From Escherichia virus TH47, in sequence record MT446416.1: 64,000 bases of DNA; one strand, 5' to 3'. Below, in pieces: positions 24,861-63,243 of the stretch. Position 1 is the stretch's first letter; every line of letters starts with the position of its first letter. The translations under genes and the position numbers were made by a program. The notes beneath the pieces were generated by a model. That model did not search any database. It had not been told where the DNA came from and was given only the letters and a program-made list of their open reading frames with translations.

Positions 24861-24965
24861 ATTAACTATATATTTTAGATACACCTATGCACCCGGTGGG
24901 CTAGTTTTTGTCTATGCGTATATAATAGCAAAGGGACTTACCGGAGTCAATCCCTTTTTTATTCT
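24861..24965. repeat. ~100-nt conserved intergenic element, copy 1 (TATAAT...ATGCACCCGGTGGGCTAG...hairpin+T-run)
   Basis: near-identical copies at 25966-26066, 28698-28800, 32948-33055. Confidence 0.55.
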
Positions 24966-24967
24966 TT

Positions 24968-25225
24968 TTATGAAATATCTTCGATGTAGTCGGCCCATTT
25001 CATTTTTTCAGTACTGTCAATGGCTACCGGATTATTTGGATCAAACCATTCACCATTACCGCAATACATACCCACGGCTACGGTTTTATAGCCATCCTGT
25101 GCCGTATTCCATGACATTGCACGATAGATATGGCCTTTAATTGGTGTTAGTACTGGTAACGTTTTATGGTCTTCTACGTAGGCCATAGCTTGAGGATTTA
25201 CCCGATATTGTGTGAACTGTTCCAT
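24968..25225 (-). CDS. hypothetical protein
   Basis: 85 aa. Confidence 0.5.
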   Translation of the reverse strand: MEQFTQYRVNPQAMAYVEDHKTLPVLTPIKGHIYRAMSWNTAQDGYKTVAVGMYCGNGEWFDPNNPVAIDSTEKMKWADYIEDIS

Positions 25226-25301
25226 TATGTTTCCCCTTGTAGTTAGTAAAGTTATTACATCAGTACTATCAAGCTATGTCAATAGTACTGAAATAAAACT
25301 T

Positions 25302-25526
25302 TTAGATTAGATTATTGATACCTTCGATGGTAGACTCGCTTTCTTCTTTCTCCCATTGTCGGTAGTACTTCCATGTTTCATGATATGTGGCGATTAGTTC
25401 ATCTTTTTGATCCTGGTTACATGCCAGTACTGAATCACGGTGAGCGGTGTTATAGATAGAATCGAATGATTTCTTCTCTTCTGCCAGGTTAGCTACTTCC
25501 CGCATCAGTTCATCAAAGTTAGCCAT
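25302..25526 (-). CDS. hypothetical protein
   Basis: 74 aa; AAGGAG RBS. Confidence 0.5.
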   Translation of the reverse strand: MANFDELMREVANLAEEKKSFDSIYNTAHRDSVLACNQDQKDELIATYHETWKYYRQWEKEESESTIEGINNLI

Positions 25527-25593
25527 TTTAATACTCCTTTTAGTGGGGGAGGATATCTCCCCCTATGCAAAACATTATACGCTTTATTCAGTA

Positions 25594-25857
25594 CTATGCA
25601 AGTACTTTTTTCATATAAACATTAAATTCTACACCGCCGTAACCTTCCACGATGATATGTTTTGCGTTATCACGCTTGCACATAGTGAAACCGTTGTTGA
25701 TATGTTCTGCATTTTCCAGGGCTACATCACCGATAGCGGCACATACAGCACTAATAACAGTATTCCGCAAAGTACTGGTATCATTAGCGGTCATAGTAGT
25801 TTGCAGTACTACGTTGTCATATACGTGTGCATTGATAGTGATTTCAATAGCGTTCAT
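25594..25857 (-). CDS. hypothetical protein
   Basis: start MNAIEITINAH at 25855-25857 after CCAGGAGA; track extension is cassette read-through. Confidence 0.5.
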   Translation of the reverse strand: MNAIEITINAHVYDNVVLQTTMTANDTSTLRNTVISAVCAAIGDVALENAEHINNGFTMCKRDNAKHIIVEGYGGVEFNVYMKKVLA

Positions 25858-25865
25858 GGTGTATC

Positions 25866-25928
25866 TCCTGGACTTGAGGGGAAACCATTTCCCCCTCTCG
25901 ATGTAAAACATTATACGCGAATTGCGAT
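25866..25928 (-). promoter_or_regulatory. sigma70-like promoter (TTGCAT-16-TATAAT) followed by palindromic stem-loop GGGGAAAnnnTTTCCCC and RBS
   Basis: -35 at 25922-25927, -10 at 25900-25905, stem-loop ~25868-25885 (minus-strand sense). Confidence 0.55.
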
Positions 25929-26073
25929 AGTATGCAAGTACTTTTTTAAAATAGTTTTCAGTACTGAATACTTATATAATAGATACATTTATGCACCCGG
26001 TGGGTTAGATTGTTTTCATGCATATATAATAGCAAAGGGACTGACCTGAGTCAATCCATTTTTTTAATCTTTT

Positions 26074-26658
26074 TTATCGTGTTATAGTTACGGCTTTTAC
26101 ATCACGCTTTTTATAGTACTGATTCCAGATATTGCGGGTTAAACCGTAATCAAGTACTTTAATCAAGCCGTTACGATCCTGGCCGATATTCTGTTTTCTG
26201 ATATCTCTTATAGTTAGTGTTGATAAGGTATCATCAACGTGTTGTAGTGCATCAGCAAAGCGGTGCTGGCGTTCAATGGTATTACGTTTAATATTGCACT
26301 TTAATTCGTTGCACGCGTTAACGTGCTTTACGCTGCCTTTGCTTGCAGTACTCAAACGATCCATAACAATAAACATATTATCAGGATCGCTTAAATGCAT
26401 ATGCACCTTAGCAAAGTACTGTTTCATTTGAGGGCGGTCATAATCTAAAAAATTCCATACCTTACATTCAGTTTCATTTTGTTCTACACCCGCATCACAA
26501 TTCGCGACCTTGATCACTAACCGATCATTTAAAGCGAATACTATACGGGAAGAACCCGCACCGATGATCTCAAGACCAGCTAACCGACAAGCTGAAAGGA
26601 TCTCTTTGTTGGTTTCCATTTCTGACAGTGTACGGATAAATTTAGTATAATTACGCAT
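26074..26658 (-). CDS. protein-kinase-like protein (Ser/Thr kinase fold)
   Basis: Gly-rich loop IIGAGSSRIV, VIKV lysine, catalytic-loop-like IRDIRKQN, DFG-like LDYG; start MRNYTKF at 26656-26658 after AAGGAG. Confidence 0.5.
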   Translation of the reverse strand: MRNYTKFIRTLSEMETNKEILSACRLAGLEIIGAGSSRIVFALNDRLVIKVANCDAGVEQNETECKVWNFLDYDRPQMKQYFAKVHMHLSDPDNMFIVMDRLSTASKGSVKHVNACNELKCNIKRNTIERQHRFADALQHVDDTLSTLTIRDIRKQNIGQDRNGLIKVLDYGLTRNIWNQYYKKRDVKAVTITR

Positions 26659-26705
26659 TGCATTTACTCCTTGAATTGATGAAACTATATTACAGTACTT
26701 TACTA

Positions 26706-26933
26706 TCAATGGCAACTACTTTTTTTAACATTAACGGCGTGGATCACTTCCTTAGTGTTTTTAGTACTGAATACTTTTGCCGCTCCTTGTTCGACCGTGA
26801 TGCGATAGCGACCATTAACATCAACCATATTAATAAAGTCCGGCGTGCTGAATGGTGTTGTTTTACATTTCAGTACGGTTAACAGTTCCACCAGCGATGT
26901 AGTTTATTTGATACGTTTTTCTAAAGTAATCAT
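26706..26933 (-). pseudogene. small ORF with in-frame TAA at codon 10
   Basis: ATG 26931-26933 with RBS-like context; TAA at 26904-26906 in frame; downstream frame continues ...TTSLVELLTVLKCKTTPF (track ORF 26706-26891). Confidence 0.3.
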
Positions 26934-26987
26934 TTTGTTTTCCCCCGTGTTGGTATATATACATAGTACTAAAACATTTGAGTACTG

Positions 26988-27242
26988 TCAACGTGAAATT
27001 CTTTTAATAGCAGTATTATACTGCTGGTGCTCATACAAACTAATTTTACCAGTACTCTCGATAACGATTCTATTGTTAGTGTCTACATCGATAACACGCA
27101 GTTTACCGTTGCTTAACTTCCTAGGTAATATGTTACCATTAATAAACTCATTAGCAAGCTGTACGGCCTTTGTGATGATTCTCTGAGGGGCTTTATAGTG
27201 TACCCGCAAGATATTATCTTTAGATAGTTGTACCTTAATCAT
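26988..27242 (-). CDS. hypothetical protein
   Basis: 84 aa; AGGAT RBS. Confidence 0.5.
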   Translation of the reverse strand: MIKVQLSKDNILRVHYKAPQRIITKAVQLANEFINGNILPRKLSNGKLRVIDVDTNNRIVIESTGKISLYEHQQYNTAIKRISR

Positions 27243-27304
27243 TTTAGTTTATCCTATAAAAAAAGCGGGAACTGATCCCGCCGTGTTGTTAGTACTGCTA
27301 GGTA

Positions 27305-27700
27305 TTAGATAACCTGTCGGCGTTTACTGAATACAGTAACACTGTTTCCCTTGCGGTCGTGGCGGATCTCTCGTTGGTTGCGAATCAGTACACTTGGACG
27401 CTTCAAGTTAGCCAGATGATCCGCGTGAGTCCATGCATTCGAATTTACGGAAACTTTAATATCAGAACCCGCGACGAATTCATCTTGAGCGTTAAGAATT
27501 GCCGCCAGTTCTTCAGCTTGTTTTTGTTCTGCTGCTGTCAGTACTGGCTCAGGTGAATTCACAATATCAGAGATTTCTTTGAACTGTACGGCCCAGCGTT
27601 GGCCTTTCGGTGCATCTTTGCCCATGTCTTTAAATAGCTCACCTTCCTCGCGTGCAACAATACGGGCAGCTTCACGGGTAGCGTAGAATTTAGTAATCAT
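27305..27700 (-). CDS. hypothetical protein (paralog of 39218-39481)
   Basis: shared segments ATREAARIVA...FKDMG...RWAV...HDRKGN-VTV. Confidence 0.5.
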   Translation of the reverse strand: MITKFYATREAARIVAREEGELFKDMGKDAPKGQRWAVQFKEISDIVNSPEPVLTAAEQKQAEELAAILNAQDEFVAGSDIKVSVNSNAWTHADHLANLKRPSVLIRNQREIRHDRKGNSVTVFSKRRQVI

Positions 27701-27795
27701 GGTATACATCCTATTAGTTAAGTTAGTACTACAAGCGAGAGTCTATTATAAAGTACTATCTGTGTAATGTCAAATAGTACTTTAAATGGATTCTA

Positions 27796-28119
27796 TTACA
27801 TGTCTTTCTTACGTTTTACATCGTAGTAGCGAACTGTTATTTCTTTGTTAATCTCTTTTTCGATGCGGTGAATAACTTTTTCTTTCGGGTTGAAACCTAT
27901 AACGGTTTCTTTAATGATCTCCAAACCAGTGTATTCGCCTTGCGTACCGTAACCGTATGTAAAGGTTTCGTGTCCCAGGTCTTCCCAGCGGTCGCCAATT
28001 AACGCAGACACGTAGCAAGAGTGGTAAGTATTGCCGTTCCGATCAGTCCAGCGATTAACTTTAATGTCAAAGGAGGTTACAATTTTCAGTTCTACTTTCT
28101 GGGTAAGGATCATAGCCAT
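27796..28119 (-). CDS. hypothetical protein (paralog of 34364-34708)
   Basis: shared YGYG motif and C-terminal DVKRKKD[ML]. Confidence 0.5.
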   Translation of the reverse strand: MAMILTQKVELKIVTSFDIKVNRWTDRNGNTYHSCYVSALIGDRWEDLGHETFTYGYGTQGEYTGLEIIKETVIGFNPKEKVIHRIEKEINKEITVRYYDVKRKKDM

Positions 28120-28206
28120 TTTTATTTCTCTCTTTTAGTTAGGAGGGGAACCATTCCCCTCACTTGATGTAATCTATTATACAGTACTAAGATACTTTGT
28201 CAATAC

Positions 28207-28482
28207 TTAAGTATTGTAAATGTCGTGAATAGTGATAAAGTTTTTACGACCGTAAACCTGTAAATCGGTATCAATGTAGTGTTTATCTAGTACATCCTCG
28301 ACGCTTAACGCGGTGTCGTGGATATCTTCGTAGAATTGAGGATCTACAATCTTGCTTAAGTCATCCGGTGTTAACTTATCGTTAAGCCATTGCACCGCCT
28401 GGATATCTGCTTCACGTTTCCAGTCTTGCAGGTTAGTAGTCAGTACTTGCTCGATTTCGTTAGCTGTCAGTAGAATCCGCAT
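28207..28482 (-). CDS. hypothetical protein
   Basis: 91 aa; preceded by TTGACA-16-TATAAT. Confidence 0.5.
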   Translation of the reverse strand: MRILLTANEIEQVLTTNLQDWKREADIQAVQWLNDKLTPDDLSKIVDPQFYEDIHDTALSVEDVLDKHYIDTDLQVYGRKNFITIHDIYNT

Positions 28483-28536
28483 TTTAATGTTTCCTTATCA
28501 GTGGTTGATGTAAGTATTATACTCGTTTACTTTCTA

Positions 28537-28620
28537 TTGTCAATCTTTTTATCAGGGGAGTTTTTCGTATGTCTTACTCCTGGACTACTTAACGGGGTTA
28601 CTTGTTTCGTTCCCCCGTCC
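28537..28620. repeat. ~80-nt conserved element (ATCAGGGGAGTTTTTCGTATG...CCCCGTCCTGATG), copy 1 of 2
   Basis: second copy at 38537-38622; internal inverted repeats. Confidence 0.5.
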
Positions 28621-28942
28621 TGATGTAAAACATTATACTTGATTTTAAGTACAATGCAAGTACTTTTTAAAAATAGTTTTCAGTACTAGCCACCAGCAAA
28701 TAATAGATACATTTATGCACCCTGTGGGCTGATTTGTTTCTATGCGTATATAATAGCAAAGGGACTTACCGGAGTCAATCCCTTTTTTAATTATTTTTAA
28801 ACTTGTTTTGGGTTGCGATATGTGATAGCGTTCGGGTACATTTGTTTAATGTTATTCCATGCCTGGTTAACATTATAACCACTTGAGCGAATCAGTTGGT
28901 TACTACCGACACCTTGAAACACTACTTCGAATAAGAATTCTT

Positions 28943-29116
28943 TCATGCTTTCACCTCGCGATCTGCTTTACCTTTACGCCACGCTGTTGCTAATTGTTCG
29001 CGTTGCCATAAGTCGAGTGATACGTAAAGTTTTGCATTATCACCCTTCGGATATTCGCCAGTAGTACCAATCCGATAAAACAGATCTTTCAGTACTGTCA
29101 ATTCTACCTGGATCAT
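28943..29116 (-). CDS. hypothetical small protein
   Basis: start MIQVELTVLK at 29114-29116; track N-extension is cassette. Confidence 0.45.
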   Translation of the reverse strand: MIQVELTVLKDLFYRIGTTGEYPKGDNAKLYVSLDLWQREQLATAWRKGKADREVKA

Positions 29117-29134
29117 TATACTTTCCTCTTTGTT

Positions 29135-29195
29135 AGGAGGGGAACTATTCCCCTCTCGATATAAAACATTATACACTTTATTCAGTACTGTGCAA
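29135..29195 (-). promoter_or_regulatory. sigma70-like promoter (TTGCAC-16-TATAAT) plus stem-loop AGGGGAAnnnTTCCCCT
   Basis: -35 29190-29195, -10 29168-29173, stem-loop 29135-29156. Confidence 0.55.
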
Positions 29196-29202
29196 GTACT
29201 TT

Positions 29203-29415
29203 TTAATCTTTCAGCCAATGATCCTGAATGAATTTTTCACCAAATCCCTGTTTCATGGATTCTAACAGGCGTTCACGGTGAGCGTTGGCGAATTGCTCCG
29301 TACTATGCGTTACACCTGGTTGATATCTGGATTCACCATTGGGGGCGATGTATTGCACATCCCACGGTTTAGCGTTAGTATCAGACCATTTACGAACGAT
29401 TAGTTGACCTTGCAT
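29203..29415 (-). CDS. hypothetical protein
   Basis: 70 aa; GAGGAAAG RBS. Confidence 0.5.
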   Translation of the reverse strand: MQGQLIVRKWSDTNAKPWDVQYIAPNGESRYQPGVTHSTEQFANAHRERLLESMKQGFGEKFIQDHWLKD

Positions 29416-29501
29416 TTTTCTTTCCTCTTAGTGGGGAGAATCATTTCTCCCCTTCATGTAAACTATTATACAGTACTATAATCTATTGTCCAGTACTTTT
29501 T

Positions 29502-29690
29502 TTACAGTTTATGAATCAATTCTTTATCTAAGCGATAGCGTACATTATTAATAGTAACGGCATTGTTTTTAATGCTACGCTGTACTGGTCCACCAGCAAT
29601 AACAAACGTTGCCTTATTACCCCGAACAATGATAGCACTTCCTGGATTGCTGTATTCATCTTGTACTAAAATACTTGATAAGTTTTCCAT
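29502..29690 (-). CDS. hypothetical small protein
   Basis: 62 aa. Confidence 0.45.
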   Translation of the reverse strand: MENLSSILVQDEYSNPGSAIIVRGNKATFVIAGGPVQRSIKNNAVTINNVRYRLDKELIHKL

Positions 29691-29777
29691 TTTTATTTCC
29701 TCTTAGTAGGGGAAGATGTTTCCCCTTGATGTAATACAGTATACACTATCTTTCAGTACTGTCAATACTTTTTAGTA

Positions 29778-30134
29778 TTACGATAAAATCATGATAGGAT
29801 ATTCACTATCGATCAGTACTTCGAATCCAAAACCTTCGTACCATTCTTTAAGATTAAAGGCGTTATCTTCTCCCGTATCGCATTCTAAAATGATACAATC
29901 GGAATCATCAGCGGCATCAATAAAGGCATTCATTAATTCGTTACCTTCACCATTGCCCCGACTATCAGGATCAACATAAAGAGAATCAATAAACGCTACA
30001 CGGTCATAATCAAGATCCGGTGCAATGATTCCACGTTTTTCAAACCAGTACTGCAATTGTGCTACTTTGCCCTGTACTTGATAGCCAGTGATCTCGCCAT
30101 TGTCAGTAGTACGCGTGATATGTTGTATTCCCAT
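29778..30134 (-). CDS. possible GNAT-type N-acetyltransferase
   Basis: 118 aa; segment VDPDSRGNGEGNELMNAFIDAA resembles acetyl-CoA-binding motif A; weak. Confidence 0.35.
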   Translation of the reverse strand: MGIQHITRTTDNGEITGYQVQGKVAQLQYWFEKRGIIAPDLDYDRVAFIDSLYVDPDSRGNGEGNELMNAFIDAADDSDCIILECDTGEDNAFNLKEWYEGFGFEVLIDSEYPIMILS

Positions 30135-30197
30135 GATTTCTATCCTCAGTTAAGATATAAAATATTATACACTATCTTTCAGTACTGTCAATACTTT

Positions 30198-30455
30198 TTA
30201 TCTCATAGATCTATGCCAACAATTACGCGGGGGACGTTTAAAAGTACTATCATGATCCTCCTGGCAAGTTATGCAGTACATGCACCCTACAACGGCCTGG
30301 CGTCGATTCTCAGGGATTAAATCACCGCAATCATGACAATGTGTTAGTGATTCTCTTTGTGCGTTAATTTGCTTTCTAGCGTGGTTTACGGCGGCCTGAA
30401 TCACTGCGTTAATCTCGTCTTGTTCGGCCCCGTCTTTCGCGAATCCTACTGCCAT
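30198..30455 (-). CDS. TraR/DksA-family C4 zinc-finger protein
   Basis: CHDCGDLIPENRRQAVVGCMYCITCQ closely parallels TraR CEACGNPIPEARRKIFPGVTLCVECQ. Confidence 0.75.
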   Translation of the reverse strand: MAVGFAKDGAEQDEINAVIQAAVNHARKQINAQRESLTHCHDCGDLIPENRRQAVVGCMYCITCQEDHDSTFKRPPRNCWHRSMR

Positions 30456-30783
30456 TATTTTAACCTCATTATAAAAATACTATATTACTGTAATGCTACA
30501 ATAATACTACTAGTACTAATCTTATTCAAACCACATGATACTACATATCCACCAGCATTACCACGGATAGTAACGCCTTTGTACTGTCTATATAAATTCA
30601 ACTGCGTTTATTGCCTTTGATCAAGAATTGATCAGAATTATACGCCTTATGCTAAATTGATCCAGTACTTTTTGATCATTTATTGATCAATATTATACAG
30701 TTACATTTGTGCACCCTATGGGTTGGTGACGTTCTCGTCTTGATGTAAGTATTATGCCAGTACTGGATGATATTGTCAATAGA

Positions 30784-30981
30784 TTATTTTAACTTTTTTC
30801 TGTCATTGATTAATGCTTTCAGTACTATACTAATGATTTGCAATGATTCATCAATGACTATAAAATTATTATCTTTCATTAGATGATAGTTACCATTGAT
30901 ATTATATTCTAATGAGTACTGTTTACGTTTAATTTTTGATAATGTTTCTATTTGTTTTTGTACTGATTTCATGCTAATCAT
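30784..30981 (-). CDS. hypothetical small protein
   Basis: 65-aa ORF. Confidence 0.35.
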   Translation of the reverse strand: MISMKSVQKQIETLSKIKRKQYSLEYNINGNYHLMKDNNFIVIDESLQIISIVLKALINDRKKLK

Positions 30982-31087
30982 TGTTAAACGTCCTGTAACG
31001 CATTCTAACGATATAAACGGTTTAGTACTGGCATTGTATAGGGTAAATGATTAAAGCCCACCAGCGTTAACTAGTGGGCTATAATCT

Positions 31088-31237
31088 TACATCTTGCGGA
31101 TAATCTTAACAGTATCTTTCACCGATTTACCGTCTTGCTGGCATTGCTCGATCATCGCGTATTGTTCTGCGGTCAGATCCTCGCCAGTTTTTGCCAGTAC
31201 TGCATCGATGAATGAATCCAGTGCGATCATTTTATTT
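31088..31237 (-). CDS. hypothetical small protein (49 aa)
   Basis: manual translation MIALDSFIDAVLAKTGEDLTAEQYAMIEQCQQDGKSVKDTVKIIRKM; GAGAGAAATAAA upstream. Confidence 0.4.
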
Positions 31238-31320
31238 CTCTCTTAGGTTAAGTTAACTACTGTTTATAAAACTTATTATACAGTACTATCAATCTATGTC
31301 AATAGTACTGGTAATATATT

Positions 31321-31572
31321 TTATACGGGCTGTACCGCCAGTGTATTATCTGTTATAACCTGGTACATAACTTTTACAGTACTGTATGCTTCTTTGATGC
31401 TTAGCCCTTGAACTACAGGGACTTCATCAGCACCACCAGGAAGGGTACGCGAGATAACCAGTTTATCATTTTCTGAATGTACACAGTAACGATAGGTCAT
31501 CTGGCGACGGGCTAACGCATCATTCAAGTACTGTAAGTGGCGTTCTACGTTCTCGCGAGTAATACGGGTCAT
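31321..31572 (-). CDS. hypothetical protein
   Basis: start MTRITRENVERH at 31570-31572. Confidence 0.45.
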   Translation of the reverse strand: MTRITRENVERHLQYLNDALARRQMTYRYCVHSENDKLVISRTLPGGADEVPVVQGLSIKEAYSTVKVMYQVITDNTLAVQPV

Positions 31573-31608
31573 GATTGTTTCCTTAATAGTGTGGACTTGA
31601 TAAAACTT

Positions 31609-31636
31609 ATTATACAGTACTATCAATCTTTGTCAA
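31609..31636 (-). promoter_or_regulatory. consensus sigma70 promoter TTGACA-16-TATAAT
   Basis: -35 31631-31636, -10 31609-31614 on minus strand, upstream of 31321-31572. Confidence 0.55.
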
Positions 31637-31655
31637 TAGTACTGTGATAATATTT

Positions 31656-31868
31656 TTAGTTAATGATAGTCAGTGTAAAATTGTAATCCCCTGCCTGGTA
31701 TAGTACTTTGTCGCCGAACGTACCAACACGTTTCATATTGCAATAGATACCCATAACACTTTTTACATCTTTGATATTCCGAACGCCTGTGATATCCTTG
31801 TTGAAATTTTCATGATCAGAAAATAAAACTTGTTTTGCATTTTTCAGTACAGTGCAGATATTAGCCAT
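31656..31868 (-). CDS. hypothetical protein
   Basis: 70 aa. Confidence 0.5.
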   Translation of the reverse strand: MANICTVLKNAKQVLFSDHENFNKDITGVRNIKDVKSVMGIYCNMKRVGTFGDKVLYQAGDYNFTLTIIN

Positions 31869-31962
31869 TTTGTTTTCTCTTTGTTAGTGGGGAGAATCAT
31901 TTCTCCCCTTGATGTAACTTATTATACAGTACTATAATCTATTGTCAAACTATTTTTTAATA

Positions 31963-32301
31963 TTATTCGAAATCTTCTGGACCGGACTGATAATCATCTT
32001 CACCGTATGCACTTTCTAACTTCTCGCCAGTGTGATCATCAGTTAGTGAGTCATCCTCATAGTTCACGTCTACGCCCGTGATGTAAAACTGGCTATCGTC
32101 TGGATCATTGAAATTAATTTTCTGAATGTTTACAATAACTGTATTGATTCCCAGGACACCGCCATCAGCCGTTACAAAGTACTGATAGTTTTCACAACCG
32201 CCTGAATTGAAACCGTAATTAATTTCGGCCCGACCATCATTTAAACGCAGTGCCTGGGCGATGATTTCGTTTTCAAAGTTAGATTGAGCGATTGAGATCA
32301 T
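31963..32301 (-). CDS. hypothetical acidic protein
   Basis: 112 aa, D/E-rich C-terminus. Confidence 0.5.
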   Translation of the reverse strand: MISIAQSNFENEIIAQALRLNDGRAEINYGFNSGGCENYQYFVTADGGVLGINTVIVNIQKINFNDPDDSQFYITGVDVNYEDDSLTDDHTGEKLESAYGEDDYQSGPEDFE

Positions 32302-32365
32302 TTTGTAGTTCCTTGTTTGCTTAAGATGGGACTATTATATAATAGCCCCGTTGTGTTGTCTAGTA

Positions 32366-32833
32366 CTATTTCACGTTAATTTCAAAGTACTGCTCTTTGA
32401 TGTTTTCCTGTTGGTAAATCTCGTTTAATGCTTTAAGATCTAACACCTGTTTACCTGCGGCCCGAATATACTTGTTAAGAGTCGCTAACAGCTTCTCAGG
32501 CGTGTTTGTAGTCTTACGTGTTGGGATCTTATCGTGTCCCATAGCGTAGTACTGTTTACGTGGAATAGTACTGATAACGCTGCGGTACGGTTCCATGATC
32601 AGCTTGTCTGTGTATTCGTCGCTATCCCCGAACTTCATACCGTGGATCGCAAAGGTCATCATCATGCGGTCGTTATCGCGGATATTGTGGGGGCAATCGG
32701 CAAGCTCGCGAGTCAGTGACATAGTGATCCCCACGTCGCCACCCAGCGGTAAAGGTCGGGCGATAAAGAAACCGTTAGGGAATACTTTCAGGAAGTTTTC
32801 TTGTACTGCTGCGACGAATTCGATGCTATTCAT
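32366..32833 (-). CDS. hypothetical protein
   Basis: 155 aa; AAGGAAATG context. Confidence 0.55.
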   Translation of the reverse strand: MNSIEFVAAVQENFLKVFPNGFFIARPLPLGGDVGITMSLTRELADCPHNIRDNDRMMMTFAIHGMKFGDSDEYTDKLIMEPYRSVISTIPRKQYYAMGHDKIPTRKTTNTPEKLLATLNKYIRAAGKQVLDLKALNEIYQQENIKEQYFEINVK

Positions 32834-33499
32834 AATTCATTTCCTTAATTAGTGGGGGAAGTTGTTTCCCCTCTCGATGAAAAACATTATACGCCAATTG
32901 AGATAGTTTGCAAGTACTTTTTAAAAATAGTTTTCAGTACTCAATACTTATATAATAGATACACTTATGCACCCGGTGGGCTAGTGAGCTATCTCTCAAT
33001 GAATATATAATAGCAAAATGGCTGACCGAAGTCAACCACTTTTTTCATTTATTTTTTAGCTTTTAGAATCGCCGCCTTTCGCGTCATGCCTTGCTTAATG
33101 TACTCCTTTACTTTCGCTTTACGTGCTTTCGCTTTATTTGCTTTCGTAAATGCCGAACAACTTTTATAGTTTAAACCTGTTGGATTCATTTAAATCACCA
33201 TAAAGAATAGATAGGTTACTAACAACGCCGCGATCAATGCACCGATCACCGCCGAACTGTAATAAGCAAATGATTTCATTTTTTAGCCTGGAAGTAATGT
33301 TTAATTTGTGCGGCGGTCAGTGCACAATTTCGCAGGAAGTTTTCTGTATAACTGCGGCGAGTACTGAAAGAAAATTGACCTTTGCCGTTGCCGATAGTAA
33401 CATCAAACCGAGCGTTGTATTGTTTCATTTTGATTCTCCTTGTATCAGGGAGGAACCATTTCCCCCCCCTCTATGTAAAACATTATACAGTACTGAAAA

Positions 33500-33709: not shown

Positions 33710-33710
33710 A

Positions 33711-36881: not shown

Positions 36882-37122
36882 TTGATTATCCTTAGTTACC
36901 AGGGGAACCGTTCCCCCTATGTAAAACATTATACGCGTTTAAAAACTATTATCAAGTACTTTAATATAAAAGTATTTGAAAAATAATTGTTGACAACTGC
37001 ATCCAGTACTGGCATAATACCTACATAAAGACAAAACAGTCTCCAACCCACCGGGTGCATAGATCCGTCTATTAAATGATTCAGTACTGCAAAATAAAGG
37101 GGATCAATTGATCCCCTCTGTA

Positions 37123-37344
37123 TTACTTAGTAAGGTATAAACAGAAGTCACCTTTATTTGCTACGCCGCCAGTGTAACGCGATGAATAGTTAGAAATATC
37201 TTGTACTTCTGCTATTACCAGTGTATCATCATTCATTTCGTCGCAGAAGCAAACGGCTGGATCTTTTACGCCGATATTGTCGGCATGTTCCCGCATAGAT
37301 TTAACCAGTGCTTCCAGTTGAGAAAGAGTAGTGATATTAGCCAT
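37123..37344 (-). CDS. hypothetical small protein
   Basis: start MANITTLSQLEAL at 37342-37344. Confidence 0.45.
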   Translation of the reverse strand: MANITTLSQLEALVKSMREHADNIGVKDPAVCFCDEMNDDTLVIAEVQDISNYSSRYTGGVANKGDFCLYLTK

Positions 37345-38475: not shown

Positions 38476-38899
38476 TTTGTAACCCTCATTCAGTAGTTGA
38501 TGTAAGTATTATACGCTTTTAAAAACAATTGTCAAACTATTTTATCAGGGGAGTTTTTCGTATGCCTTACTCCTGGGCTACTCAACGGGGAGTTACTTAT
38601 TTCGTTCCCCGTCCTGATGTAATACATTATACGCCGTTAAACATAGTATGCAAGTACTTTTTAAAATAGTTTTCAGTACTGAATAGTAAAAAGGTATTGA
38701 CAGCACTATCCAGTACTGGCATAATATACCCCATGACAACAGCTAACCCACCGGGTGCACAATTGTAACTGTACTAAACTACTTTTTCTATAGATACACT
38801 CCCGCACCCCGTGGGCCAAATTGTTCGTTTCAATAGATACATTATGCCAGTACTGACAAAATAAGTCAATACTGGCAATTGTAAAGATTTGTAAACTAC

Positions 38900-40596: not shown

Positions 40597-40624
40597 TTGA
40601 CTTGATCCTGAAAAAGCGTATAAT
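40597..40624 (+). promoter_or_regulatory. plus-strand sigma70-like promoter TTGACT-16-TATAAT
   Basis: -35 40597-40602, -10 40619-40624; no convincing ORF downstream. Confidence 0.5.
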
Positions 40625-40937
40625 TACTACATAAGCCGGACACAAGGCACTAACCCACAGGGTGCGGAATTACGCCCAAAATTCAAGATATAAAAAAAGG
40701 ATACACTCCCGCACCCTAGCAGGTCAACGCACTTTCTCAGTACTGAAATATAGTACCATAGTACTTGCCAGGATAGCAAGCAAATTAATTAAAACTTTTT
40801 TGCTTCCAGGGTATTGCTTTATTTTTTCAGTACTGTATAATAGTTTCATCAAGTCGAGAAAGACTCAAGCCCACCGGGTGCATAGTTACGCCCAAAATTC
40901 AGTACTGAAAAAATTTTTAAAATATCTGTCCAGGCCG

Positions 40938-58824: not shown

Positions 58825-58865
58825 TTCGTTATCCTCATCAGTTGATGAAATAATTATAGCAAAAA

Positions 58866-58885
58866 GGGCTGACCGAAGTCAACCC
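58866..58885 (-). terminator. terminator-promoter cassette: UUCG-tetraloop hairpin + T-run with -35 (TTGAC) inside the stem and TGcTATAAT -10
   Basis: minus strand reads GGGTTGACTTCGGTCAGCCCTTTTTGCTATAAT; repeated at 60313-60331, 61118-61137, 61701-61719, 63286-63305, 33019-33040. Confidence 0.6.
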
Positions 58886-58895
58886 TTTTGTATTG

Positions 58896-60044
58896 TTATT
58901 TCTTGTCTAAGATTTGTACTTCACCATAAATCTGTACGATTTGCTTTTCTGGATTACCTTCGATAAGTTTTAGAAAAGATTTCAGTACTGCAACGTGGTC
59001 TTCATAGTATGCAATCCTAATGAAGTTGTAACCGTTGTTGATGGCGTACTCAGTTTTTATTGCGTCTTTTATCTTTCTTTGTTCAAAAGCACTTTTGCCG
59101 CCCCATAATTTGATTGATTGAAAATGTTGTACTCCATCATATTCCAGAAGGATTCGTTTACTTTCAATAAATCGATCAAAAGGTAATGGCTTTTTGAACT
59201 TACAATCAATGAAGCGTTTCTCTTTTATGGTATCATCTTCTAACATACCATCAATATCAACTAAATTCTTACTCTCACCTGATGAACAGGTAGGACATGA
59301 AGACTCAGATGATATATAGTTATGATATGATGGATAAAATGGGTTATTACAATCATTACACTGTAAATGTAATTTTGTTTTTGATGTTTCATAAACACCT
59401 CCCACAAATCCAATAAAGGTATTATTACAAACTGCGTTTCTTTTATCTATTTCATATTTGACTACTAGAATATTCAAACGAATCTTTTTTGCCGAGCTGT
59501 AATCACGACATTCAACACAATTATGACCATTAAGAAAATCATAAATGTTCTCACATAAACGAGTATGGTTGTTTTTACATTTGTACCAAAATTTAGATTT
59601 GAATTTTGTAGTAAATTCACCTTCAAATTTGATAAATGTAATAGATTCACGTTTACACTCTTTTTGTATTTCTTTTAATGCATCAGATTCAGATATTTTG
59701 ATAGTGTTTTGGTACTCTTTTCTTTTCTTCTTACCACATATCTGACATCCACCAGAGATAAGATAACTTTTCAGTGAACTTGTACATAAAGTGCTGCATG
59801 TTCCACATCTAAACAGAACTTTATTCTTTTCTAGTCCAAAAAATTGATTACTGTTTGATATCTGTAAGCCAAAAATAGTATCTTCTTTTTCAATGGCTTT
59901 TAGTTTAATTTCATCAATTCTAACGATAGTTTTTTTATTTTTTACAGGAACATTTTCTATTTTCATGTACTCAAATTTAGTACATAATTCTTCAATAATA
60001 TAAACTTTCTCACCATCTTCATTTAAATAGTACTTTTCAAACAT
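58896..60044 (-). CDS. zinc-ribbon repeat protein with C-terminal endonuclease-like domain (homing-endonuclease-like)
   Basis: three Cx2C...Cx2C repeats; C-terminal EYDGVQHF...IRIAY resembles PD-(D/E)xK / Vsr-like endonuclease. Confidence 0.5.
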   Translation of the reverse strand: MFEKYYLNEDGEKVYIIEELCTKFEYMKIENVPVKNKKTIVRIDEIKLKAIEKEDTIFGLQISNSNQFFGLEKNKVLFRCGTCSTLCTSSLKSYLISGGCQICGKKKRKEYQNTIKISESDALKEIQKECKRESITFIKFEGEFTTKFKSKFWYKCKNNHTRLCENIYDFLNGHNCVECRDYSSAKKIRLNILVVKYEIDKRNAVCNNTFIGFVGGVYETSKTKLHLQCNDCNNPFYPSYHNYISSESSCPTCSSGESKNLVDIDGMLEDDTIKEKRFIDCKFKKPLPFDRFIESKRILLEYDGVQHFQSIKLWGGKSAFEQRKIKDAIKTEYAINNGYNFIRIAYYEDHVAVLKSFLKLIEGNPEKQIVQIYGEVQILDKK

Positions 60045-60060
60045 TACTCAATACTCCTTT

Positions 60061-60273
60061 TCAGTACTGAACCCGTCCAGCACCATTAATCTTAGCCTGA
60101 ATCTTATCTTTTTCGACAAGACCTTCTTTGTAATCGATGGACGTATTATCGCACTGAATTACATCTAAGTCAAGTACTTCTTGTGTACTTAATGAAGTAT
60201 TGTCTGCAATTTGTTGTAAAGTAATGATATCAGTACCGAAGAATTCTGCTAAACGTATAAAAGATAATTTCAT
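60061..60273 (-). CDS. hypothetical small protein
   Basis: 70 aa; AAGAGG RBS. Confidence 0.45.
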   Translation of the reverse strand: MKLSFIRLAEFFGTDIITLQQIADNTSLSTQEVLDLDVIQCDNTSIDYKEGLVEKDKIQAKINGAGRVQY

Positions 60274-60325
60274 GTGTTACCTCTTAAGTTGATGAAATAA
60301 TTATAGCAAAAAGGGCCGACCGAAG

Positions 60326-60595
60326 TCAACCATGTTTGAAAGGATTTTTTAATGGTTTTAGTACTGTATGTATTCTGCTGTGTAGTTCTTCTTCCCACAA
60401 AACATTTACATTATAAACTAAATCATTGTAATCACTGTACTCAAATATAAAATCATACTTTTCATCAAAAGTATGAGAAATCAATTTCATTTTCATCAGT
60501 ACAATAGAACTTTTAAATTTATATGTTTCTTTTTCTTCTCCGGTTTTTGAGATTGGTATATTTTTTACAAATTCTTTGAATTCATCATCAGTCAT
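60326..60595 (-). CDS. hypothetical protein
   Basis: 89 aa. Confidence 0.4.
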   Translation of the reverse strand: MTDDEFKEFVKNIPISKTGEEKETYKFKSSIVLMKMKLISHTFDEKYDFIFEYSDYNDLVYNVNVLWEEELHSRIHTVLKPLKNPFKHG

Positions 60596-60613
60596 AGTTT
60601 AACCATATATTAT

Positions 60614-60835
60614 TTAACCAGTATTAGTCCCAATATAGTCACTCCATAAATTATATATATTGTTTTCAACACAATCATCATCGCTTAATTCTATCATTGA
60701 TGATATAAGTACTGATACGGTTTGTGTGTTCAAATCGGTATCGCGATGTTTCAACCACCATTTCAGGGTGAGGGTGAGTGTTCGTGCTGTGTTTGGATTA
60801 TTTGTAAATTTATATCTGGTGGTATCGAGAATCAT
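60614..60835 (-). CDS. hypothetical small protein
   Basis: 73 aa. Confidence 0.4.
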   Translation of the reverse strand: MILDTTRYKFTNNPNTARTLTLTLKWWLKHRDTDLNTQTVSVLISSMIELSDDDCVENNIYNLWSDYIGTNTG

Positions 60836-60883
60836 TTTAAATCTTCTTTCATTTAATTATATAAACAAAGTACTCATGTAATT

Positions 60884-61081
60884 TTAATTACTTTTGTATA
60901 TTGAATCACATTGTCTACTCAATAGTTTATAGTATGCTTTACCACGAGGAAATAGTTTACGTGTATGTTCTCCTTTTCCCCACGGTCCTAAATATGTTTT
61001 ACGCGTGTCATGATTATTAAAGTTCTTTGATACAGTTGATTTTGTACCAATAGGATCTTTCTTACTAAAATAGATAGACAT
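60884..61081 (-). CDS. hypothetical small protein
   Basis: 65 aa. Confidence 0.4.
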   Translation of the reverse strand: MSIYFSKKDPIGTKSTVSKNFNNHDTRKTYLGPWGKGEHTRKLFPRGKAYYKLLSRQCDSIYKSN

Positions 61082-61143
61082 TATAAAGTTTTCTCTTTAC
61101 TAAGTTTATGTATTAACGGACTGACCGAAGTCAACCCTTTCCT

Positions 61144-61659
61144 TTAATAATTATTCATTTCATCTTTGATTTGTTCTTCAATTTCGTCGAACATATCAGT
61201 ACTAGATTCTATATTACTACTTACGTCCTGCATATCTTTAACGTACTGTGGGCGTTCAACGTCAGTAAATTTATACCACTTAGGCTTCATCTGGAGCTTC
61301 TCAATCAAACGCTCACGAGACATTTTAATCTCTGACTCCGATGGTACGTAGTCATTACAAAACTCAGCAGGGAAGCCGCTAATGTCGTTTACTTCAGTGT
61401 TTTGAATCTTCATACCACGACGCAAACATTCATTAACAATATCAATATGACGCTTCTGTAAGTACAATAACTTGTTGTAGAAGAATGTTACATGACCTGA
61501 ACCTAACAGGTAAGTACTGTTAATTTTGAAATCACGGACTCGCTTACGTGCTTGAACATGTTTTTGTACAGCACCAAACACACGTGGGAGTTCACGATAT
61601 TCAGCCATCAGATGTTGGTCAGCAAGTTCTTTAACGTGTACTAAGTTAATGCGTGTCAT
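61144..61659 (-). CDS. denV: pyrimidine-dimer DNA glycosylase / endonuclease V
   Basis: [30 protein letters not shown]...KRVRDFKI...GHVTFFY closely matches phage T4 endonuclease V as recalled; longer C-terminal acidic tail. Confidence 0.85.
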
Positions 61660-61728
61660 GTATTCATCCTCTCGTTTCGATGAAATGATTATAGCAAAAA
61701 GGGCTGACCGAAGTCAACCTTTTTCTTA

Positions 61729-63243
61729 TTATTGTTTTACCCCGCCCCACTTTTCATAGATTGCAATAATCTTATACAAGTTTGTGATGTTAGTTGTTTC
61801 CGTGTAACCATCTTTCATTTCATTTTTGGTAAGTACACCTTTACCAAAAATCCTCTTACACTCCTGTTCTGCTGACCTACAACTTTTGGGAGTGCTGAAA
61901 TGATAATACAACATTGAAGAAACTTTATATATACATTTATTGTCTTGGTGCTTCTGGCGGCGACCATGAACCTTTTCAATTCCATATTTCAATGCAATAG
62001 GTAACTCACCATCATAGATCACATGAATGTATGCAAATTGTTGATTATGATTAGAACATTCGGGGCAACCGGAACCACCAAGGTGAGCATTTGGAGTTAT
62101 TTTGAACTCACCATGTTCGCTACATTCAACCTTAACTAATTTATGTGCATTCACATAATTCGTTTTAGGATATGTGTACTTCCCATTATGTACTTTAGAT
62201 GCCTTTTCAATAAATTCAGGTGTACTAGAACGTTCACATCCTGAACATTTAGAACAACCATTTTTTTCATGTAGATGGTGTGTTGGTTGCTGCGTGAACA
62301 CACCATGTTCTTTACAAACAATCGATACTTTAGTTTTTAAGTTTTTATATTTAACTAAAGAATAATCATATTTGTCTCCATGTATTTCATGTGCTTTTTT
62401 GATGAACGTTTCGGTAGTTAACGCCATCTTTCCACTACACTCTAAACAACCATTGCCAGCCACATGTTTACTGGCAAGTTGCTCAAAATCACCATGTTCT
62501 GGACATGTAATTATAACTTTTCCACGTCCATTTATATAGATAGTTTTATCATATGAATATTTGTCACCGTGAACTTCTTTACATTTTTTGATGAAATCCG
62601 GGGTGTCTTTATATCTATACGTACCACTACATTTAGCACATTTAAAACCACTTAGGTGGTTTGCTGGGGTTTGTTCAAAATCACCATGTTCTTTGCATGT
62701 TATTGTAACTTTGGTTTTTGAGTTGATGTACACAACTTTATCGTATGTGTACTCAAAATTATGTTTAACATTTGCCTTCATGATAAAGTGCTCATTCGTA
62801 GAAACTCTTCCCAAGTGTACAATTGAACCGTCTTTATTCATCTTAGTGCATAAATTACATCCACGTTTTTTTCTTAAATGATCACTAACTCTTTTCTCAA
62901 AATCACCATGTTCTGGACATGTTATAATTACTCTAGAAGAATTAGAAACATCATCTTGTACCTTATCATAAAGGTACACATCACCAAAAATAGCACGAGA
63001 CTGTTCGATGAATTTAGCTTTACCCTTTCGAAAGTGTAGTCCATTTTTTGTATATCTACATTTTTTGCAGCCAGATGACCGTAAATGAGTTCCAGCAATT
63101 TGTTCGAACTCACCATGTTCTGGACATGTAATAATCACTGAGGTTCTTGAATTAACATAAACCACTTTAGTATAATCGTACTTAAAATTATGCAATTTAT
63201 TCGCTTGTTTTACAAACTCTTCTTTATTCATTGCGACTGGCAT
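61729..63243 (-). CDS. multi-zinc-ribbon protein (6-7 tandem CxEHGxF...HL...GCxxC repeats), possible nuclease
   Basis: repeats ITCPEHGEFEQ...; C-terminal VIY-N9-YGI...RR loosely GIY-YIG-like (weak); start MPVAMNKEE with same upstream context as denV. Confidence 0.5.
   Translation of the reverse strand: MPVAMNKEEFVKQANKLHNFKYDYTKVVYVNSRTSVIITCPEHGEFEQIAGTHLRSSGCKKCRYTKNGLHFRKGKAKFIEQSRAIFGDVYLYDKVQDDVSNSSRVIITCPEHGDFEKRVSDHLRKKRGCNLCTKMNKDGSIVHLGRVSTNEHFIMKANVKHNFEYTYDKVVYINSKTKVTITCKEHGDFEQTPANHLSGFKCAKCSGTYRYKDTPDFIKKCKEVHGDKYSYDKTIYINGRGKVIITCPEHGDFEQLASKHVAGNGCLECSGKMALTTETFIKKAHEIHGDKYDYSLVKYKNLKTKVSIVCKEHGVFTQQPTHHLHEKNGCSKCSGCERSSTPEFIEKASKVHNGKYTYPKTNYVNAHKLVKVECSEHGEFKITPNAHLGGSGCPECSNHNQQFAYIHVIYDGELPIALKYGIEKVHGRRQKHQDNKCIYKVSSMLYYHFSTPKSCRSAEQECKRIFGKGVLTKNEMKDGYTETTNITNLYKIIAIYEKWGGVKQ

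Follow-up and report, generated by a model that had tools for sequence, protein, structure and literature searches.

Four repeats of about 100 nt in a 64,000-nt stretch of Escherichia virus TH47 DNA (MT446416.1; the window) are to be read on the minus strand, the strand of every gene that flanks them, and each is probably a cassette in which a terminator is joined to a promoter that launches a conserved structured RNA with a function that we infer. This RNA is a promoter-coupled leader of about 50 nt, with a 5′ stem (P1), an RCCC-AYN-GGGUGC core and a YRYCY tail; more tentatively, we propose that it may represent a new family of functional structured RNAs in the enterobacterial Rak2-like jumbo phages.

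The window belongs to a PBECO4/G17-type jumbo coliphage (Asteriusvirus), and the region is 91-93% identical to Asteriusvirus genomes. Its minus-strand ORFs match PHROG families, and the genes flanking the cassettes are small PHROGs of unknown function. For comparison we used the G17, UE-S1 and GAP32 records, and cite CBB, RaK2 and fENko-Kae01 as well.

Copies of the repeat and their strand

The four copies described in the earlier note (c1 to c4, Table 1) are present and align over about 110 nt. A search for GCACCCGGTGGGC with at most two mismatches finds nine sites in the window, compared to 0.05 expected from shuffled sequences; four lie in c1 to c4 (24889, 25993, 28717 and 32969) and five outside them (37046, 38746, 38804, 40653 and 40869). 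An unfiltered covariance-model scan of the window gives 10 full copies and a single partial one within 24873-40897, adding a full copy at 30695-30743 and the partial copy at 40699-40718 to the sites of the mismatch search. All of the isolated motif copies listed previously are recovered, those given as ~30709 and 40708 being the two that the model adds.

Table 1. Coordinates of the repeat copies and associated features in the window
Feature	Extent	Strand	Hairpin	Promoter and predicted start	P1	Core	Other
c1, type B	24873..24965	-	24954-24933, GGGATTGACTCCGGTAAGTCCC	-35 24950-24945; -10 TATTAT with TG 24927-24922; start near 24915	no stem	CCCACCGGGTGC 24900-24889	A-tract; P3 24894-24877; upstream gene 24968-25225(-), stop at 24968; downstream gene 24383-24715(-)
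c2, type B	25977..26066	-	26057-26038, 8 bp, loop UCAG	-35 26054-26049; -10 26031-26026; start near 26019		26004-25993	P3 25998-25981; 3′ side UUCAGUACUGAAAAC at 25968-25954, then D1-type promoter
c3, type B	28701..28800	-	28782-28761	-35 28778-28773; -10 28755-28750; start near 28743		CCCACAGGGTGC 28728-28717	P3 28722-28705
Chi site by c3	28697-28690
c4, type A, full	32953..33055	-	33042-33015, 12 bp, UUCG loop, then UUUUGC	-35 33035-33030; -10 33012-33007; start near 33000	32998-32985, UGAG-AGAUAG-CUCA	32980-32969	P3 32974-32957
Fifth co-directional copy	30695..30779	-		TTGACA-17-CATAAT 30779-30751	GACG-AGAA-CGUC	30722-30711
Sixth co-directional copy	38788..38869	-		38869-38841		38815-38804
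Antisense copy of convergent pair	38697..38774	+		38697-38725		38747-38758	faces 38788..38869(-)
Antisense copy	40597..40681	+		TTGACT-16-TATAAT 40597-40624	GCC-GGACACAA-GGC	40654-40665
Partial copy	40699-40718	-					faced by 40597..40681(+)
Antisense copy	40820..40897	+		TTGCTT-16-TATAAT	AGUC-GAGAAA-GACU	40870-40881
Lone antisense unit, candidate ~100-nt small RNA	36990..37125	+	37098-37117 (3′), reverse side of terminator of gene 37123-37374(-)	TTGACA-17-CATAAT 36990-37018; start near 37025	AGAC/GUCU	37047-37058	leader 37025-37074; after leader AUUCAGUACUG
Five leaderless hairpin-embedded promoters (repeat family D12)	58846..63323	-		-35 TTGACT begins 58882, 60329, 61134, 61717, 63302

On the minus strand, each of c1 to c4 reads in the order A-tract, hairpin with TTGACT in its stem, 17 nt, TGcTATTAT, a conserved CA that is the predicted start site, and leader. 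TTGACT as the -35, the 17-nt spacer and TATTAT with its TG are present in all four copies, and at the level of sequence they have the features of a sigma70-type promoter with an extended -10 (hexamer spacing, TG at -15/-14, upstream A-tract). This coupling of motif and promoter extends to the related phages: a promoter in the motif's own orientation and immediately upstream of it, defined by a sigma70-type score of at least 9/12, is found for 94% of 98 distinct copies, compared to 5% of random positions. The TG extension is found in 65% of these copies, and the spacer is 17 nt in 74 of the 98.

The hairpins, too, favour the gene strand. The same hairpins are annotated as gene-strand terminators (ARNold) in the G17, UE-S1 and GAP32 records, and stop codons lie 7-14 nt upstream of them. 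The c4 hairpin has a folding energy of -15.9 kcal/mol (z = -4.5) as minus-strand RNA, compared to -6.4 kcal/mol as plus-strand RNA. The c2 and c4 hairpins are listed among the terminator-like sites, with few T in their tails; those of c1 and c3 have a G.A mismatch in the stem and a short U-tract (UUUGCUAUUAU; UUUGC tail). As we propose, a GC-rich hairpin with an A-tract before it and a U-tract after it would end the transcript of the upstream small gene, while the TTGACT inside the hairpin DNA, with the 17-nt spacer and TGcTATTAT, would form a strong host sigma70 promoter from which transcription restarts at the conserved CA. The next ATG is about 108-260 nt from the predicted start in c1 to c4, with the leader and a second promoter between (the gene at 24383-24715(-) begins about 200 nt past the predicted start of c1), and in co-directional copies the RNA would run on through this second promoter into the next gene.

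The earlier note had placed the elements on the plus strand, as short RNAs running from a TATAAT box to a hairpin and T-run, or as palindromic operators. A TTTTTT does follow the hairpin on the plus strand, and TATAAT does lie upstream in c2 and c4, but there is no usable -35 for this box, which is not conserved in the other genera, and the G.U pairs of the c4 hairpin and of P3, a pairing in the leader, become mismatches (C.A in P3) when read on the plus strand. As for an operator, the symmetry of the core is weak, with arms of only 4 bp (CACC-N-GGTG); the CACC-C-GGTG variant is symmetric, but the commonest variant, CCCACAGGGTGC, loses the dyad, as does any copy with A as its sixth core base (50 of 68). 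Moreover, the orientation of the motif always follows the upstream promoter, on either strand, and the adjacent hairpin has compensatory changes. A palindromic DNA operator is not supported, and the plus-strand and operator readings together appear largely refuted by the sequence and are very improbable. What stands of the earlier proposal is a family of short, structured RNAs; the strand, promoter and terminator that it gave c1 to c4 do not hold.

Conservation and folding of the leader

The covariance model has 112 matches, 97 of them distinct, in Asteriusvirus, Mimasvirus, Alcyoneusvirus, Eneladusvirus, phage fENko-Kae01 and uncultured jumbo contigs; the distinct copies cover five or more named genera of Rak2-like phages as well as unclassified relatives. 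About 10-13 copies are found per early or terminal-repeat stretch examined, and one third of the distinct copies are antisense to genes. The 97 copies have three features in common: a 5′ hairpin in which pairing persists while the stem sequence varies, an almost invariant core, RCCC-AYN-GGGUGC, and the YRYCY tract.

The leader would be the first ~50 nt of the new RNA, folded as a conserved domain. In this domain P1 would be a 5′-proximal hairpin of variable stem and A-rich loop, joined by a YUAR linker to P2, a small hairpin R-CCC/AYN/GGG-U; the tail, GC-RNARD-U-S-YRYCY, could pair instead with GGGUGCR to form P3. Covariance analysis, suggested in the earlier note, shows that changes in the P1 stem are compensated across the relatives' copies: P1 is 95.9% paired with both-side changes at all four pairs, in an alignment that is biased towards the model's own structure and built from seeds picked for having P1. 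With no selection for a hairpin, the segment 5′ of the core has 17 different stems and a folding energy of -2.93 kcal/mol, compared to -0.96 ± 0.19 kcal/mol for shuffled sequences. P2 is 98.7% paired, with C-G replaced by U-A or U.G in five copies. P3 is 89.5% paired, with changes on one side of the pairs only (G-C to G.U and U-A to U.G). Folded individually, the leaders are no more stable than shuffled sequences (z about 0), and three of the four window copies (c1 to c3) are without the P1 stem and have only the A-rich stretch left.

P2 and P3 are mutually exclusive, sharing the GGG, and the observed variation fits both. This arrangement could be a bistable attenuator or switch, in which P3 followed by U residues would make transcription stop or pause unless P2 forms or a ligand or protein is bound. 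The two have similar energies, P3 being favoured in 50 copies and P2 in 42; a T-run follows P3 in the partial copy (40717-40698, flagged as terminator-like), at GAP32 17348 and at CBB 15231, and a -10-like hexamer, T-A-T-W-R-T, lies 3′ of P3. However, the U-run is missing in most copies and P3 is weak or unfavourable by energy in about half of them (mean -2.7 ± 3.75 kcal/mol, compared to -3.6 ± 1.0 kcal/mol for P2); the element is small for a ligand-binding aptamer, and ten copies before unrelated small genes are unlike a metabolite riboswitch. We give such a switch a low probability.

Relation to known phage elements

The hairpin-promoter part of the cassette resembles the promoter-early stem-loop (PeSL) cassettes of T4-like phages (Arbiol et al. 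2010, PMC2839356; Comeau et al. 2014, PMC4122927), in which a stem-loop lies just upstream of a sigma70-like early promoter, with the consensus A3-4G3-loop-C3T3-4 in nt-1/KVP40 (PMC4122927). In both, a stem-loop, in c1 to c4 a putative terminator, is joined to a sigma70-like early promoter, the stem is flanked by A-rich sequence on its 5′ side and T-rich sequence on its 3′ side (AAAAAAGGG...CCCTTT in c1 and c3, AAAAAAGTGG...CCATTTT in c4), and the unit recurs among small genes of unknown function within an early region that varies greatly, where closely related phages differ by insertions, deletions and replacements with breakpoints at the unit. Indel breakpoints with respect to UE-S1 and G17 fall at the cassette edges (24965-24969) and at D1 promoter repeats, and blastn with the element matches KVP40-like Vibrio phages via the hairpin-promoter part only. 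The differences are that PeSLs are found in T4-type phages and c1 to c4 in a Rak2-like jumbo phage, that the -35 follows the stem in PeSLs but is inside it in c1 to c4, and that PeSLs end in a Shine-Dalgarno sequence and start codon whereas c1 to c4 would launch a leader of ~50 nt that has a second promoter after it. The leaderless copies at 58.8-63.3 kb do share this 3′ end with PeSLs: four of the five read GG(G)TTGACTTCGGTC(A/G)GCCCTTTTTGCTATAAT, then directly Shine-Dalgarno and ATG (the promoter at 61134 has a poor -10, ACATAA). In function, the hairpin-promoter part would act in regulation and recombination as a cassette of PeSL type.

The whole element might instead be purely a recombination cassette, the likeness among copies, leader included, being maintained only by gene conversion and PeSL-type modular shuffling between them, and the leader RNA having no function. 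The cassettes are sites of indel breakpoints, and downstream of a kinase-like gene the window has a type B leader where G17 has type A, which suggests that copies have been swapped. But the core is nearly invariant across genera, compared to 73-80% identity for the whole element, and P1 stems keep their pairing although their sequences differ, an outcome not expected of neutral homogenisation. Furthermore, the leader is found behind differing promoter types and identical hairpin-promoters exist without it, so that the two parts can be separated and conservation applies to each by itself. A functionless leader is improbable, and the earlier note's fallback of a passive recombination scar applies to the PeSL-like, breakpoint-associated hairpin-promoter part only.

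The leader part, unlike the hairpin-promoter part, seems to be new, and apparently this RNA of ~50 bases was undescribed until now: Rfam 15 gives zero matches at the gathering score in the window and none that are relevant at E up to 5 in 24700-41400, and we found no host sequence or published paper that matches the leader.

Cis-acting antiterminator RNAs are found right after early promoters in the HK022 put RNAs and the lambda nut sites; a put RNA, about 70 nt with two stem-loops, makes RNA polymerase terminator-resistant, and a nut site has a boxA (YGCTCTTWA) beside a boxB hairpin. A nascent leader could likewise, with or without a phage protein, bind or modify RNA polymerase for processive readthrough of the many early-region hairpin terminators. 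The leader is similarly promoter-proximal, fixed right behind promoters, with two small hairpins within about 50 nt and purine-rich, boxB-like P1 loops (GAGAAA, GCGAAA), in a terminator-rich early region (nearly every gene or small gene group is followed by one). However, it differs in having many copies per genome in both orientations, some immediately before a conserved terminator; it has no sequence or model match, and no Rfam family match; and boxA was not found within or beside any leader copy, its window-wide count being at chance level. In addition, most co-directional copies reach the next promoter and gene without meeting a terminator, and the lone units described below keep a well-formed U-tailed terminator only about 25 nt past the leader, a spacing that is constant in three phages. 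We consider antitermination unlikely.

The 5′-terminal hairpins that stabilise bacterial and phage mRNAs, such as that of the ompA leader, are like P1, which starts 3-6 nt from the predicted 5′ end and whose stem sequence is free. A role of this kind leaves unexplained the invariant core, the conserved loop and the copies without P1.

Lone antisense units and the possible role of the leader

Five lone antisense copies in three phages, the one at 36990-37125(+) in the window and four homologous units in RaK2 and fENko-Kae01, share a GC hairpin, its stem covarying and its tail reading CUUUGU, that lies 46-52 nt past the start of the core. In each, the leader is followed by A/U-rich sequence and then by a U-tailed terminator hairpin, and by sequence each has the parts expected of a stand-alone bacterial-type small RNA gene (its own promoter, some 50-300 nt free of ORFs and an intrinsic terminator). 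The constant ~25 nt between leader and U-tailed terminator in three phages suggests that transcription is intended to end at this point, on the reverse side of the neighbouring gene's terminator, which would give an RNA of ~100 nt. Phage and prophage small RNAs are like the lone units in their predicted sigma70 promoter, length of about 100 nt, A/U-rich stretch and U-tailed terminator, but the leader differs in forming a multi-copy paralogous family with a conserved structured 5′ domain that also heads mRNAs.

Most likely, the leader is a factor-binding RNA handle or a small RNA, made very early in infection. As a recognition handle it would let a phage or host factor set the fate of very early transcripts, and the stand-alone copies would be small RNAs or decoys with the same handle; this function is one guess among several. 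If the proposal is correct, the leader RNA would belong to the first transcripts made in infection, at the head of mRNAs and in stand-alone RNAs of ~100 nt alike, and in host takeover it would serve either as a two-state regulatory element or by engaging a host or phage factor, as its decoy or handle.

Probable terminator-promoter cassettes on the gene strand

The four intergenic repeats described in an earlier note (c1–c4, see the table) are present and can be aligned over ~110 nt, and the isolated sites that the note listed are all among the copies that a covariance model finds in the window (10 full copies and 1 partial, all within 24873-40897). The window contains 9 matches to the 13-mer GCACCCGGTGGGC when at most 2 mismatches are allowed, compared to an expected 0.05. 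Between 22 and 42 kb, the minus strand holds all plausible genes; the ORFs that flank c1–c4 belong to PHROG families of unknown function, and the proteins encoded nearby include one DksA-like zinc finger and one weakly kinase-like protein. Members of Asteriusvirus (the PBECO4 / phAPEC6 / G17 / 121Q group of Escherichia jumbo phages) are ~91-93% identical to the window. In related records the homologous region lies inside or adjoins direct terminal repeats, and in the paper on phage CBB it is taken to be early, to serve host takeover and to be furnished with RpoD-like promoters and UP elements (PMC5259590).

Along the minus strand, c1–c4 all have the same order of parts: the upstream gene ends at its stop codon, and an A-tract, then a hairpin, then a short T-tract and finally TGcTATTAT follow it. 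In all four, the stop codon is 7-14 nt before the hairpin, and the -35 sequence TTGACT is inside the hairpin, exactly 17 nt ahead of TATTAT; in a consensus promoter scan all four reach 10/12 and carry the TG extension. The hairpin of c4, 12 bp with a UUCG loop, folds with -15.9 kcal/mol as minus-strand RNA (z = -4.5), but only -6.4 kcal/mol as plus-strand RNA. Inspection of the alignment by eye reveals two compensatory pair exchanges between the stems of c2 and c4, A-U to G-C and G-C to U-A. The annotators of the G17, UE-S1 and GAP32 records assigned the homologous hairpins as rho-independent terminators of the gene strand. The plus-strand promoter from which short RNAs had been proposed to arise lacks a -35 and is not conserved, and a plus-strand promoter scan of c1–c4 yielded a single weak match (9/12, at c3). 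The repeats are very probably gene-strand terminator/sigma70-promoter cassettes of the PeSL (promoter-early stem-loop) type, which launch a conserved 5' RNA domain with at least one real hairpin.

PeSLs of T4-like phages are composite terminator/early-promoter elements, in which a stem-loop (A3-4G3-loop-C3T3-4 in the nt-1/KVP40 consensus) is just 5' of a sigma70-like promoter, and they cluster at indel breakpoints and in hyperplastic regions (PMC2839356; PMC4122927). The hairpin-promoter part of the c1–c4 cassettes matches this description, but the cassettes differ in one defining respect, in that they lack the terminal ribosome-binding site and start codon. Matches by blastn to KVP40-like Vibrio phages and Aeromonas phage 65 are through the hairpin-promoter part only. 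The cassette is thus a variant of the PeSL: it belongs to another group of phages, and its -35 is part of the stem. The hairpin-embedded promoter recurs at 58.8-63.3 kb as GGGTTGACTTCGGTCAGCCCTTTTTGCTATAAT, leading directly into a Shine-Dalgarno sequence and ATG; since these copies are without the conserved motif, the hairpin-promoter and the motif are separable modules.

The likeness to PeSLs extends to differences between close relatives at these sites. In UE-S1, ~290 nt are inserted exactly against the upstream edge of c1; window 24385-25879 is missing from G17, deleted between two copies of a second promoter family, D1; and at the position downstream of the kinase-like gene, a type-B leader (without the P1 stem) in the window corresponds to a type-A leader (with it) in G17. 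It is possible that the leader is a functionless passenger of such recombination cassettes.

A predicted leader RNA coupled to promoters

The conserved ~50-nt 5' RNA domain, or leader, comprises a hairpin (P1), a core (RCCC-AYN-GGGUGC) and a tail. The element is recognisable by blastn at 73-80% identity in several related phages; it is carried by Cronobacter phage GAP32 and Pectobacterium phage CBB (Mimasvirus), Klebsiella phages RaK2 (Alcyoneusvirus), K64-1 and fENko-Kae01, and Yersinia fHe-Yen9-03/04, Serratia BF and Erwinia pEa_SNUABM_47 (Eneladusvirus for those fetched). Nearly all of the 61 matches to CCCAYNGGGTGC are ~22-33 nt downstream of a sigma70-like -10, on either strand. Of 98 distinct leader copies, 94% have a promoter of at least 9/12 ending a few nucleotides 5' of the leader, compared to 5% of random positions; for promoters of at least 10/12 the values are 82% and 2%. 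The TG extension is found in 65% of these copies and a 17-nt spacer in 74 of the 98, and a conserved C-A, 7 nt downstream of the -10, is the expected start site. About one third of leader copies are oriented against the genes.

The leader RNA is common to at least five named Rak2-like genera and to unclassified relatives, and is undescribed in the sources searched. The literature on promoters or RNAs of phAPEC6, PBECO4, RaK2 and Asteriusvirus yielded generic promoter predictions only, for example the RpoD-like promoters with UP elements of CBB (PMC5259590). Of 120 loci from an exact-pattern scan of IMG/VR, nearly all were chance matches; after a profile check, jumbo-phage contigs (345-378 kb) and a single contig of 109 kb were all that was left. 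The terminal repeat of Pseudomonas phage PA5oct, a phage with non-coding RNAs supported by RNA-seq (PMC7318152), had no leader copy by the covariance model with filters off. Rfam returned nothing relevant at the gathering score over the whole window or at an E-value threshold over 24.7-41.4 kb, and ARAGORN found no tRNA or tmRNA in the window. Matches to boxA were at chance level, and the leader is without boxA. The leader had no blastn match in 5,426 E. coli genomes and thus was not copied from a host RNA. The ‘palindrome’ considered earlier as an operator has symmetry with 4-bp arms only, and the majority variant has none. A short ORF from the GUG of the core was rejected by inspection, as the copies agree neither in its frame nor in its length.

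P1 is a small hairpin between the start site and the core, in which the stem sequence varies by copy but complementarity is kept (AGCA/UGCU, GGAG/CUCC, GCCA/UGGC, GACG/CGUC, ACCG/CGGU, AGAC/GUCU, AGUC/GACU, UGAG/CUCA and others), with A-rich loops (GAGAAA, GCGAAA, AGAUAA, AGAACAA). A covariance model (R1), built from a gapless seed (A3) of 19 sequences picked for having P1, gave 112 matches, 97 of them distinct, in the 335 kb of loci searched. In the R1 alignment P1 is 95.9% paired, with all 4 pairs changed on both sides; slid controls of the whole structure are 31-62% paired. Since the seed had been picked for P1, we also tested all 58 distinct upstream segments, unselected. Their mean folding energy is -2.93 kcal/mol, compared to -0.96 ± 0.19 for shuffles, and 62% of segments but 20% of shuffles reach -2 kcal/mol or better; the segments have 17 different stems. 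About one quarter of the copies, including c1–c3, have no P1 stem and keep the A-rich stretch alone.

A YUAR linker is followed by the core, which permits two mutually exclusive folds. P2 (R-CCC / AYN / GGG-U) is 98.7% paired; its loop-closing C-G is U-A in 2 copies and U.G in 3, and its loop is 4 nt in the Eneladusvirus copies. P3, in which GGGUGCR pairs with U-S-Y-R-U-C-Y, is 89.5% paired and was also predicted independently by RNAalifold from five units. P2 is steady at -3.6 ± 1.0 kcal/mol and P3 spans +2.7 to -6.4, being more stable than P2 in 50 of the 94 copies. The leader may fold as P2, as P3, or switch between both, and an attenuator switch is one possible function. The strand of the RNA is fixed by the many G.U pairs, each of which would turn into a C.A mismatch in its complement. 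Individual leaders fold no better than shuffles, and therefore the case for structure rests on comparison between copies. The variation in P3 is all one-sided (G-C to G.U, U-A to U.G); column-pair mutual information in the 3' part of the leader gave no convincing extra helix or pseudoknot. Most copies have, after P3, a -10-like hexamer, T-A-T-W-R-T, at +24 to +29 from the core start; it may act in sigma70-dependent pausing or be no more than AT-rich spacer.

Transcription units and other features of the region

We examined five lone antisense copies, one in the window and the others at RaK2 8292 and 15360 and fENko-Kae01 11026 and 3333. In all five, a GC hairpin whose stem covaries and whose tail is of the CUUUGU type lies 46-52 nt past the core start; this hairpin is the putative terminator of the neighbouring gene, read from the other strand. 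These units run from promoter through leader, AUUYAGUACUG and an A-rich stretch to the terminator, with a predicted RNA of ~100 nt and no ORF. Further antisense copies each lie opposite a co-directional one, their cores 68-90 nt apart, and this convergent arrangement is found in the window, GAP32 and CBB, and probably also in RaK2 and fENko-Kae01. Co-directional copies mostly have no terminator and continue through a D1 promoter into the next gene. The D1 family consists of AAAAAGTACTTGCAT, ~16-17 nt, TATAAT, a GGGG...CCCC 5' hairpin (CAUCGAGAGGGG...CCCC), a Shine-Dalgarno sequence and ATG, and its members directly downstream of leaders c2–c4 form tandem promoters. At GAP32 8789-9228, a leader-bearing promoter is followed by ~330 gene-free nt up to an annotated terminator (9199-9228), possibly a ~400-nt non-coding RNA.

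Features of the window, with coordinates and strand
Feature	Coordinates	Strand	Remark
Repeat c1	24873..24965	(-)	type B
Repeat c2	25977..26066	(-)	type B
Repeat c3	28701..28800	(-)	type B
Repeat c4	32953..33055	(-)	type A
D1 promoters	24332-40349	(-)	16 copies, e.g. 25894-25956, 28616-28678, 32870-32932
Lone antisense copy	37047
Convergent copies	38747/38815; 40654/~40715
T-A-T-W-R-T hexamer	32957-32952		example
Chi sites	24835 to 41393		after c1 leader, 24842-24835; after c3 leader, 28697-28690; back-to-back, 41374/41386
CAGTACTG	25959, 37004, 37082, 38711, 40427		examples
Gene-free stretch	40350-41600		~1.2 kb
AGTACTGAA(T/A)GAT repeats	~40400-40460		five, 13 nt apart
CRISPR-like repeat	41012-41033	(-)	GTTCCCCTACCGCGTGGGGATA
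8-nt tandem repeats	41068-41219
Paralogous arrays	46411-54420; 5155-6652; 7191-8027; 19120-19865		periods ~1.2 kb (46.4-54.4 kb) and ~440 nt (5.1-6.6 kb)

The window has 10 copies of the Chi sequence of E. coli, GCTGGTGG (0.59 expected); all are within 24.8-41.4 kb, 8 are on the gene (minus) strand, and two come just after leaders. In GAP32, fENko-Kae01, CBB, RaK2, fHe-Yen9-03 and pEa_SNUABM_47, early or terminal-repeat loci have 6-14 copies each, mostly on the gene strand, compared to ~0.2 expected; PA5oct has zero. Chi enrichment may be a protection of genome ends from RecBCD. The 8-bp palindrome CAGTACTG, with 65 occurrences in the whole window (0.89 expected), is found in promoter spacers (CCAGTACTGGCATAAT), just 5' of -35 hexamers (AAAAAGTACTTGCA), ~10-25 nt past the leader RNA and within genes, and could be a protein-binding site. 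The gene-free stretch, which contains the AGTACTGAA(T/A)GAT repeats, the 8-nt tandem repeats, the back-to-back Chi sites and three leader-RNA promoters, may mark the boundary of the terminal repeat or be a site of packaging or an origin region. A sequence present once (0 expected) is similar to the repeat of the E. coli type I-E CRISPR system, GTTCCCCGCGCCAGCGGGGATAAACCG, and might be a solitary repeat like those of RNA anti-CRISPRs. Elsewhere, diverged paralogous genes form tandem arrays (families D7-D11, D14, D17).

Function of the leader

We favour the view that the leader domain acts as a factor-recognition handle on very early transcripts, and that the stand-alone units would be small RNAs or decoys with the same handle, because conservation is in loops and a short core, not in stems, because mRNAs and short RNAs alike begin with this domain, and because many copies are behind strong promoters. 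The lone units also keep a terminator right after the domain, which points to a handle and argues against antitermination, another possible function. A plain 5' stabiliser is possible as well. Taken whole, the account of cassette and leader joins a solid anatomy to an uncertain function, and we consider it moderately probable.

The Rak2-group jumbo phages are poorly understood; their early regions consist of hundreds of small genes of unknown function, and we found no transcript map in the searchable literature. This early region can now be read as a set of PeSL-kind cassettes, promoters of the second class (D1) with their 5' hairpin, and a structured RNA tied to promoters, and the cassettes would explain the swapping of small early genes between close relatives. 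If functional, the leader RNA would be a new phage RNA family active in the first minutes of infection, and would provide a ready handle for finding its protein partner.
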